Shown here piece by piece: positions 22,101-25,100 of a stretch of 64,000 nt of DNA; position 1 is the first letter of the stretch, and each line of letters begins with the position of its first letter. The translations under genes were made by a program, and so were the position numbers. Below the pieces are notes generated by a model. It did no database searches and was not told the DNA's origin. It saw only the letters and a program-made list of their open reading frames with translations. Source of the stretch: Paraspadella gotoi (lineage: Eukaryota > Animalia > Chaetognatha). The stretch lies in NCBI GenBank assembly GCA_051294375.1, contig CM119267.1, positions 13,029,081-13,093,080 of the forward strand, in the 5' to 3' direction.

Positions 22101-25100
22101 ACCCGCCGCTAAAAAAAATCGTCATTTGCAAACGTGTGAAGATTCTGACTCTATAATTCACTTTGTTGGTTCGTCGGTCTGCCCCCTCAATCTTGTCAGG
22201 CTTTCACTTATATCATGTCCGAACATCAAATTATGCGAATTGACCGTCTGTCTGGCTGTCTGTCTATCCCACCTTAGCAAAAAACTCCAATTACTCATAA
22301 TTGGATGGATGGATTGAAATGAAAATTTGTGATTAGGTAGGGAAGAGTTTGATTGAGCTGGATATGAAGTTTCGATGGAATCGTGCAAGTGGAAATAAGT
22401 TTAAATAGAAAAAAAAATCTAATTAACTATTTGAATGCCAATTACTCATGATTGTAAGAGGCGATTGACTTGAAATTTTGTATGTGGTAGGAAATTGTCT
22501 GATAAAGCAGCAAATCAAGTTTCAAATTATAATGAGTTTAAATAGAAAAACAAAAAACTGTTTCACTAATTCATTATGCTTTTTATATTAAATGTAACCG
22601 CAAAATGTATTAATTAATCTATTAATTAATTAGTTAATTAATTCATTAGTCAAATAGTTAATAAATAATTAATTAATCAGTCAATAAATAATCAATTAAT
22701 TATTCAATCAATCAATTTATTTATCTATTAATTAATTATTCAATCAATTTATTTATCAATCAATTAATTATTTAATCAATCAATCAATCAATTAAGTCAA
22801 TCATTATCGGCATTATTGTCATCGTCGCCCTCATCGTCGCTGTTGCTTTTGTCGTGGTCAGTGACGAAAATACTTAAAAACAAACATTTTGGATCAAATT
22901 AATGAATTGCTTAATTAATTAATTAAATTGAATTAAATAATTAATAAATTAATTACCGCTAATGATCGTGGGCAGATCCGACATTGTTTTCTCAAACTTG
23001 TTTTAATCTGAAAGATTTTTTTGTAGTAAAAACCAAAATCAATTTTATATCCAAATTTATATTGATTTTTTTTATTTGACTTGGCAATGAGCGGAGAAAT
23101 CTTCACAAGTTTGCAAATGACGATTTTTTTCTAGCGGCGGGTTGTTGTGTGTCACCTTGTACAGTAACTTAAAGGAAATTATTTTTTTTTCTTTTTAAAA
23201 TCTTTCTAACCGCAGCTTGGACGATCTTCTACGTGTTTGCTTCGATGCAGGGCGAAGTTCCGTGGAAAACTTGCGAAGGCTCCAACGGCACTACATTGGA
23301 GTGGGTCAGAGGAATTTGTCTGTCTCGGGTAAGGGGAACGACATTGATATTTGAAAATTGTTCTGACTTTAAACGAACTTAACAGGCAAAACGTTAAGTT
23401 AGTTTAAGAAAATAAAGGTTTTTGGAAGCAACAATTGTTTCGTCCAAAGGTTGAACGTTTCAATGAAAATTTGCAAATTACTTGTTTCACTATTTTCTAT
23501 TTTTATATTTTATGAAGGATTTACCATTTAATCTATATTCTTTAAATATTTATGTATTGGTTTCTTAAAAATTTGTTACTTATCATTATATCTAATTACT
23601 CATTTTGGGAAGGGGAAGTCAGTGTTGTCTTCTGGAAATAGAGGAAGTATGGCAACAGCCGGGTTGCCTGTGATGCCCATTGGGTTGGGGCATCTCACTG
23701 TTGGCTTTGGGGGCTTCCGACCCTCAGTGACGGTTACCCTAGGACGGTCTTGCTTTGCCAACGCAGAGGGAGGTCGTTAGGACTGTGGATGGAACACAAT
23801 GCCTGGGATGGTGTGTTCCCCCTGTGAGCCAATGGTATTGGTTAAACGATCGAGGACGTGAGGTGGTGTGAATATACCCCCACAGGAGCATCTATACAAC
23901 ACAAGGTTAGATTACAATCTATTAGAAAGTCATTAATGAAAAATCATAATATCTAATAGGCTGAACTGAAAGAGGTGGGAATGGATAATTTTTTGAGGGG
24001 GGACCAAAGTTCTATATATGTTATATATTTTTTTTTACCAATAGGGATAAGACTACCAAGTAGAATTGTATGTTCTGATAGGGATACATACTGGGGAAAG
24101 GTCTATAGGGGCACCTTTATGTCATGAATATAATTTTAAAATACTTTAATGAAAATATTTTTTTTTCTTTATTATGGTGGACTAAAATCCACCAACCGTT
24201 CATCAGCGGCCAGTTGGTGCCGGAGGCAAGTCATTGCCTCTCAACCCAAAAGGTCCGGGGTTCTAGCCCGGTGGTCGTCTGGCAGTTAACAGGGACGGGG
24301 CGCTTAACCCGCCTGTAACATGGTGTTACAGCCTGTCCGAAGCTCAGGGACTGCTTATATTGAACGGTTCTGTCATTAACACTTATCAATAATTACTGTC
24401 TCTTCATTGGTGAGCCCGACTTCCGAACACAACAGCAACAACACTTTCAGGCGACATGCCTCAACCTGGCGATGCACTTTCCGCCCACAACACATCAGGC
24501 GACATGCCTCAACTTGGTGACGAATTTTCCACCAACAACAACAATTCACTGAAGAGACGCAACAGACTTTCTCCCTACGGAGGGGGGGATGTATGGTGAC
24601 TAAAATCCACCAACCGTTCATCAGCGGTCATTGGTGCCGGAGTCAAGTCATTCGCCTCCCACCAAAAGGTCCGGGGTTCTAGCCCGGTGGTCGTCTGGCA
24701 GTTAAGAGGGACGGGGCGTTTAACCCGCCTGTAACATGGTGTTACAGCCTGATCCGAAGCTCAGGGACTGCTTATATTGAACGGTCGTCATTAACACTTA
24801 TCAATAATTACTGTCTCTTCATTATCCTAATTTTTAATTATTTCATTTTTGAATATTTTTTTATCTTTTATGTTTATACAATGGGAAGGAATGATTAAAT
24901 CCCAATTGACAATATATGAGACGATTGACAATATAAGAGTTCATTTGGTATTTAATATTTTCACTTTGATTTACAGTATAATATTCCTGTGTATAGATGA
25001 AGACAGAAGTCTTCAAAATATTATGCGCCAAATAAAAGTAATAGTATTACAATAGTTTCTTCATTAAATAAAAGCAAAAATAAAATTAACCTCTCATTCC

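Follow-up and report, generated by a model that had tools for sequence, protein, structure and literature searches.

A Helenus-type miniature LTR element with twister folds in its LTRs: a candidate LTR retrozyme in an animal

Described systems closest to the locus

Short non-coding LTR elements with a Pol III type promoter and LTR elements with a ribozyme have been described apart. The first kind is represented by the Helenus/TRIMp3 elements (Kojima, 2024; PMC10886601), a group of TRIMs whose LTRs carry A and B boxes of tRNA-like type. Animal Helenus elements duplicate 4 bp at the target site (target-site duplication, TSD), and their primer-binding sites (PBSs), including those of tRNA-Trp type, were reported to resemble gypsy PBSs only (PMC10886601). 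Transcription of Helenus by Pol III is not shown there. In the main text of that paper, the word "twister" occurs 0 times and "ribozyme" once, in the title of a reference. A string search of the supplement that accompanies it returned no twister L4 motif in the LTR records and no core or PBS string in common with the element described here.

The second kind is represented by the plant LTR retrozymes (Cervera et al., 2016; PMC4918200), in which a non-coding centre with a PBS of Met type and a polypurine tract (PPT) lies between LTRs of 300-400 bp that contain a type III hammerhead. Circular RNAs were shown for these elements and the unit from cut to cut was proposed to circularise (PMC4918200), a route by which the two LTRs could be rebuilt (PMC4918200, PMC7761336). 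The non-LTR retrozymes of animals and the amphibian hammerhead repeats are also small non-coding units between ribozymes, but they are tandem repeats of type I hammerheads, have no LTR, PBS or PPT, and are linked to Penelope-like elements (PMC7229834, PMC7761336, bioRxiv 10.64898/2026.07.22.740005). The published division of retrozymes, as far as these sources present it, is therefore one of plant LTR versus animal non-LTR elements, with no LTR twister listed. A 2026 preprint places LTR retrozymes mainly in plants (bioRxiv 10.64898/2026.07.22.740005), and unpublished work on type III hammerheads of insects is mentioned in PMC7761336.

Among retrotransposon-serving twisters, those of the Perere-3 T-variants of Schistosoma mansoni have a P3 and a weak P1, as do the folds reported below; they differ in being of type P1 and in being present as one copy, placed at the 5' end of a non-LTR element that is autonomous (PMC8501958). 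A full-text literature search, with most subscription journals, Repbase and Dfam outside its scope, found no twister in LTRs, no dimeric twister and no animal LTR retrozyme, and the accessible parts of PMC6765202 and PMC10085705 added no LTR twister.

Here, a stretch of 64,000 nucleotides from the chaetognath Paraspadella gotoi, referred to as the window, was analysed around an element at 24173..24821 (family A). This element has in common with Helenus its short non-coding build, two LTRs, tRNA-like boxes, PBS, PPT, 4-bp TSD, a likely gypsy helper and, for some Helenus elements, the Trp PBS. With the plant LTR retrozymes it shares the LTR ribozyme, the non-coding centre, PBS, PPT, 4-bp TSD and solo LTRs; it is distinguished from them by a permuted twister in place of the hammerhead, a Trp-like PBS, LTRs of 230 bp with tRNA-like boxes, an animal host and a circle that is here only predicted. 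By anatomy it is a Helenus-type TRIM; it likely functions in the manner of an LTR retrozyme, although it is no member of that family, and it joins in an animal the two designs named at the outset. In the preliminary description, made from the sequence of the window, the combination of LTR ribozyme and tRNA-type promoter was presented as one with no known description. This holds for the twister in the LTR; because the LTR promoter of tRNA type was already described in Helenus (PMC10886601), novelty is confined to the ribozyme and the way in which it acts.

Anatomy, copies and related families

The family A element is a 649-bp non-coding LTR element on the forward strand, with LTRs of 234 and 230 bp. 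The 5' LTR (24173..24406), which begins with TA and ends with CA at positions confirmed by contig breakpoints, is close in sequence to the 3' LTR (24592..24821): in their alignment 222 positions are identical, 6 are mismatched and 8 columns contain gaps. The duplication TTAT precedes the element (24169..24172) and is repeated behind it (24822..24825). One base past the 5' LTR lies a tRNA-Trp-like PBS (24408..24420), identical at 12 of 13 positions when scored against the tRNA-Trp PBS rows in Fig. S2 of the accessible supplement of PMC10886601. The 185-nt interior (24407..24591) is non-coding. It holds a 46-nt internal duplication (24447-24492/24495-24540) and an 11-nt PPT (24579..24589) that is followed by TG and the 3' LTR, and the same joint of interior, PPT and LTR is found in other copies in public contigs. 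The longest ATG-initiated frame in the whole element has 47 codons on the forward and 81 codons on the reverse strand. The LTR starts with a hairpin (24175..24194), also present with other sequence in the related families B and D. Next to it, the strand 24195..24202 pairs with 24361-24368 in the MFE structures of both family A LTRs and of family B, in which the same helix has changed pairs; this helix encloses the tRNA-like part and the twister. The element is intronic, lying between exons of an intron-rich SLC6/SNF transporter gene whose nearest solved structures are animal proteins. The TA start might be taken for a processing anomaly, but a substitution is more likely, since LTR starts of either kind, TG or TA, occupy this register in families B, C and D.

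A solo LTR of family A (53434..53666, forward strand) has the same TA...CA ends, an intact twister and the duplication AGAG, so that both of the two family A insertions, one full and one solo, are flanked by 4-bp TSDs; a 4-base match is expected in 0.7% of random position pairs in this window. The stretch is present in 11 of 13 sequencing runs, and contigs from 4 runs were used. In three of these, 117, 70 and 26 contigs diverge into unrelated flanks before 24173 and 167, 120 and 42 diverge behind 24406, counts that are lower bounds on the number of insertions. Interior, PPT and LTR start are joined by 3 contigs in each of two runs. Judged from these breakpoints, family A is a large repeat family with fixed ends. 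A run with another organism label gave 2 contigs, in which one departure behind 24406 and one crossing of the LTR-PBS-interior joint were seen, too few to point to a second host.

Family B, likewise a repeat family with a fixed start, is represented on the reverse strand by a diverged LTR (56518..56747) that begins with TG and has lost its last few bases. Further sites in the window were found with a model built from four copies of families A and B. Family C provides a second complete miniature LTR element (25139..25815, reverse strand). Its 5' LTR (about 25815-25561) has an altered start and a complete twister (25694-25612), and is followed by a Trp PBS with 10 of 10 matches (25556-25547), a PPT of eight G (25386-25379) and a 3' LTR (25376-25139) in which a perfect B box precedes a twister with a 20-nt deletion. 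Family D, collinear with A-C, comprises two LTR-like copies: one at 23650..23884 (reverse strand), with TG...CA ends and an internal deletion in the twister, and one at 43612..43835 (forward strand), truncated at its 3' side with a nearly complete twister. These four related families keep the P5-permuted twister core, and their LTRs average 60% column identity. No TSDs were found for the four older insertions of B, C and D, whose copies are truncated, altered at their ends or old. Family E is an unrelated AT-rich repeat without the tRNA-like part, in which the same twister permutation occurs with a palindromic P1. The additional families, as well as the palindromic P1 of family A, are absent from the preliminary description.

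That description had proposed an element of two LTRs, PBS, 185-nt interior and PPT within a TTAT duplication, an organisation borne out by sequence, alignment, the solo LTR and the contig breakpoints; the marks of an LTR element recur in other copies, as AGAG at the solo LTR and as Trp PBS and G8 PPT in family C. Described animal ribozyme repeats are tandem non-LTR units (PMC7761336, PMC7229834), which would favour reading the locus as two tandem SINE-like or pseudo-LTR copies and no LTR element. This is highly improbable, being contradicted by the PBS and PPT around a unique interior in two families, by the fixed ends and by the 4-bp TSDs at a full and a solo copy.

The twister fold and its palindromic P1

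The folds lie at 24281..24355 in the 5' LTR and at 24697..24772 in the 3' LTR, both on the forward strand. Behind the B box, the elements follow in the order P5, 3' strand of P2, G-A, T1, a 6-nt segment and UAA, and then 5' strand of P2, T2, P3, P4, an 8-nt L4, P4 and P5. This is the order of a type-P5 twister, in a P5-open permutation, plus an added P3, and it corresponds element by element to the segments listed in PMC8501958 (Table 1) and to the Rfam Twister-P5 consensus. With that model (RF02684) it shares element order, UAA site, catalytic G, 8-nt L4, T1 and T2; it differs in a self-complementary P1 segment of 6-8 nt, in the added P3 and in a bulged P2 of 3 pairs in families A, B and E (4 pairs in C). 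In the 5' LTR the catalytic G is at 24294, the self-complementary P1 segment at 24299-24304 and the predicted cut at 24305/24306; the corresponding positions in the 3' LTR are 24710, 24715-24720 and 24721/24722. The 3' fold is intact. Compared with most of the family, the 5' fold here lacks a pair of P2 (at 24290) and a base of P4 (behind 24335), lesions that may be due to decay or to an assembly error; imperfections in P1, P2 and most of P4 were reported to be tolerated by twisters (PMC11662667). Apart from these two lesions in the 5' copy, the earlier proposal, in which both LTRs of a non-autonomous element hold a twister fold, agrees with the cores found.

Searches with Rfam models, which the preliminary description had named as a check, went against it for the copies it had flagged: no twister match was obtained for family A copies at the gathering score or at E<=10, and the scans of this family returned only chance matches of snoRNA type and no hammerhead. 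In the sister families, Twister-P5 matched the family C 5' LTR over the full model (22.3 bits, E 0.0095) and family E (18.8 bits, E 0.045), both below the gathering score of 37.6 and in small searched stretches. P2 does not appear in any ViennaRNA structure, and the structure predicted for the full transcript has the two P3 hairpins mispaired. The descriptor, which was written after the sequence of the element had been seen, gave 3 full matches in the window versus 12 in 1481 shuffled windows; the 5' LTR copy, family D and family E escaped it, and in family C it recognised the core only. It found 0 full matches in 47 loci fitting a loose pattern (1 viral, 46 metagenome), and because none of these has the full fold or an LTR pair, they were used as a negative control. 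A strict pattern for relatives had 0 matches in metagenome contigs.

Pairing tables contain the helices P2, P4 and P5, and compensatory changes support the fold. Between families A and B, 98 of 99 cells are paired and 6 of 25 pairs are changed on both sides, including pseudoknot T2; family B carries such changes in P3, P4, P5 and T2. None of 500 shuffles scored as high, a count that is not a probability, because four sequences from two families only were compared. When eight copies of families A, B, C and E were aligned by their non-pseudoknot helices, without fitting T1 or T2, 170 of 178 cells were paired and 14 of 25 pairs showed two-sided changes, including T1 and T2, a count limited by the shared ancestry of the LTR families. 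T1 exists in four versions, and it is fully Watson-Crick with its own partner in 6 of 6 chosen copies, versus 4 of 30 swapped combinations. Over 11 tabulated copies, which were chosen for a retained core, the UAA cut site, the catalytic G followed by A and the 8-nt L4 are present in all, and full pairing is seen for T1 in 8 copies and for T2 in 9; the core is lost in the family C 3' LTR and in a family E copy at 54.5 kb. As far as alignment can tell, the twister core is conserved, with compensatory changes in both pseudoknots. The covariation in four LTR families and the sub-threshold Twister-P5 matches together outweigh the missing Rfam match.

These data also bear on whether an LTR merely captured the tail of a SINE or Penelope-like element, leaving the twister as a relic that no longer matters. 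A twister of donor type is present in the window in family E, and several copies are damaged, as such a capture would lead one to expect. The catalytic bases are retained, however, and both pseudoknots covary among the LTR families, which makes a relic very unlikely.

The most unusual part of the fold is P1. In 10 of 11 copies its hairpin is replaced by a self-complementary 6- to 8-mer, in four different sequences; the share of self-complementary 4-mers in the LTRs is 11%, a comparison made post hoc on related families. The segment forms no stable hairpin, and the P1 of two or more pairs found in type-P5 twisters is lacking, whereas its self-duplex has a calculated energy of -3.7 to -11.0 kcal/mol. 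A swapped fold, in which the 5' half from one LTR is combined with the 3' half from its counterpart, is nested throughout and reaches -41.2 kcal/mol versus -29.5 kcal/mol for two separate folds, energies that leave out pseudoknots and co-transcriptional folding. A parallel is found in the axolotl: its hammerheads, in which a single pair is joined to a palindromic tetraloop, were reported to cleave better as dimers, and their monomers are circularised by RtcB (PMC7229834). On the strength of these models we lean towards a swapped dimer of the two LTRs as the structure to which the palindromic P1 points. As P1 is described as dispensable for twisters (PMC11662667), monomers may cut anyway.

Proposed transcription, cleavage and route to a new copy

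Upstream of the twister, folding prediction and box scoring delimit a tRNA-like domain at 24206..24278, with a predicted acceptor-like stem (24206-24212/24272-24278), an A-box-like motif (24215-24226) and a predicted T-arm with the B box (24259-24269). Against the box consensus strings, the family A B box has 1 mismatch and the A box in the consistent register (TRGCY, YGG) has 2, compared with 1 A-box mismatch in family B and 0-1 in family D. The GGTTC of the B box is present in 3 of 3 family A copies, in family B and in the family C 3' LTR; the B box is degenerate in the family C 5' LTR and in family D, where it has 3 mismatches. In public contigs two common variants, 24275 T>C and 24278 T>C, improve the stem by replacing G-U with G-C pairing. 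ARAGORN reported 0 tRNAs. The A and B boxes claimed earlier for each LTR are hence present as tRNA-like motifs, in imperfect form.

Runs of four T on the sense strand are absent from all 8 LTR copies of families A-D, an absence that, given the base composition of the element, does not reach significance (P=0.19), whereas most Helenus LTRs have an oligo-T behind the B box according to the records available (PMC10886601). The interior of this copy has one T4, which is absent from about 99% of the family depth, and family C has one ahead of its PPT. The lack of T4 in the LTRs would fit read-through by Pol III, and from the boxes Pol III is quite probably the polymerase. Given that the element lies inside a transporter intron, the unit could instead be cut from Pol II read-through or intron RNA of the host, with vestigial or structural boxes and the remainder of the pathway unchanged; the imperfect boxes of families A and D and the preserved pairing of the tRNA-like stems speak for this. 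The A-box-like and B-box-like motifs nevertheless keep their register across four families, with a perfect B box in C and a perfect A box in D, and a Pol II origin is considered quite unlikely.

Taken together, the evidence inclines us, with some reserve, to a Helenus-type TRIM with twister LTRs that works as an animal LTR retrozyme. A Pol III transcript started at the tRNA-like boxes would extend into the 3' LTR, and pairing of the two twister halves via the self-complementary P1 segments would lead to a cut in each LTR. Self-cleavage at the predicted U/A sites is considered very probable. Between the predicted cuts, which follow 24305 and 24721, lie 416 nt; this unit would be released and circularised, and a gypsy-type element primed by tRNA-Trp would copy it. 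Because cuts at the same point leave no terminal redundancy, a circle would be needed to rebuild two LTRs. In folding predictions the 416-nt circle does not form the ribozyme helices, and it would not dimerise in cis because it has one P1 segment; a requirement for dimers would spare solo LTRs and the finished circle from cleavage. Circularisation followed by reverse transcription of the circle is judged rather likely. As to the helper, no such element was found, but a gypsy-type element in all likelihood moves the family, and the mobilisation by a Trp-primed LTR retrotransposon put forward in the preliminary description is consistent with the 12/13 Trp-like PBS.

Cleavage might alternatively do no more than make a 3' end: the RNA would start at the boxes, the 5' ribozyme copy would stay uncut, the cut in the 3' LTR would replace an oligo-T terminator, and the RNA, linear and with about 100 nt as its R region, would be copied by ordinary strand transfer. 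The LTRs without T4 are in favour of this, compared with the wasp Helenus LTRs, of which 9 of 11 were seen by eye to have a run right behind the B box (accessible records of PMC10886601), and so is the hairpin at the LTR start, which lies upstream of the boxes, would be present in the 3' copy of the RNA only and is a possible switch. Against it, the two ribozymes are identical over about 100 nt on each side, and the palindromic P1 predicts two reciprocal active sites. This linear route is regarded as unlikely, and the circle is preferred.

More broadly, it may be that animals have true LTR retrozymes: TRIMs with tRNA promoters would have gained an LTR ribozyme at least twice and would retrotranspose through an RNA circle without strand transfer, and the twister dimer would sense both LTRs, cut only full-length transcripts and spare the monomer circle. 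This joint proposal, which spans the twister found here and an apparent type III hammerhead in Helenus elements of gall wasps, with Trp priming in both cases, is tentative and somewhat doubtful as a whole. The family described here would give the twister a second biological role, and it offers a 650-bp system for two open ideas, the copying of LTR elements from a ribozyme-made circle and the twister as a swapped dimer.

In the available records of the Helenus supplement, the LTRs of Helenus-2_SyJa and Helenus-2_SyUm contain, by eye, an apparent type III hammerhead behind the B box with long loop-loop complementarity, which suggests that ribozymes may hide unrecognised in published TRIM consensus sets. 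Among those records these two elements are the ones with a Trp PBS, and of the 11 wasp LTR records they are the 2 that lack an oligo-T at that place; their interiors contain T4 runs.

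Primer binding and LTR divergence

The primer-binding site (PBS) of family A, the miniature non-coding LTR element at 24173-24821 with a twister fold and tRNA-like boxes in each LTR, is located at 24408-24420 and departs from a Trp PBS by a mismatch at the seventh base, a position for which no variant was listed in the family contigs, the public sequencing-run contigs matching family A copies. In the same genome, the PBS of family C, a second complete miniature LTR element (25139-25815, minus strand), matched Trp at 10/10 bases. The primer of family A may be a Trp isodecoder or another tRNA. 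The two LTRs of the family A element differ by equal numbers of gap events and substitutions (six each), and several indels of the 5' LTR (24173-24406) were missing from most family contigs; these indels are possibly assembly errors.

Putative ribozymes in other repeats

A P5-permuted twister lacking P3 was also found in an AT-rich repeat, family E, with copies at 39637-39729 on the plus strand and at 39232-39408, 43849-44036, 44153-44338 and 54477-54643 on the minus strand, including a tandem pair 305 bp apart. Its P1 is a perfect 6-base palindrome, and the tRNA-like part is absent. Family E may represent a Penelope-like (Naiad) tail, and may be of the type that donated the LTR twister.

Among published LTRs of Helenus (TRIMp3), a TRIM class with tRNA-like A/B boxes, visual inspection of Helenus-2_SyJa-LTR and Helenus-2_SyUm-LTR (DataS1.fa, PMC10886601 supplement) revealed an apparent type III hammerhead behind the B box, with loop-loop complementarity of about 12 bases. 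Both elements carry a Trp PBS, and the PMC10886601 text does not mention this hammerhead.

Host gene and neighboring repeats

On the plus strand, a gene for an SLC6 sodium:neurotransmitter symporter has exons spread over about 19.3-51 kb, with Pfam SNF matches at 36255-36725, 45499-45879 and 50348-50986. The interval 25100-26610, bounded by 32-bp terminal inverted repeats, is probably a DNA transposon that was the insertion target of family C. An element of about 1.1 kb at 22077-23166 has long inverted repeats at its termini, and its AT-rich interior is made of 8/12-nt tandem repeats; together with related elements around 46.7-47.9 kb and 58.3-60.3 kb, it probably forms a MITE family. A large inverted duplication occupies 27641-35384, with arms of about 3.3 kb each (95-98.5% identity) and shorter inverted repeats at its edges.
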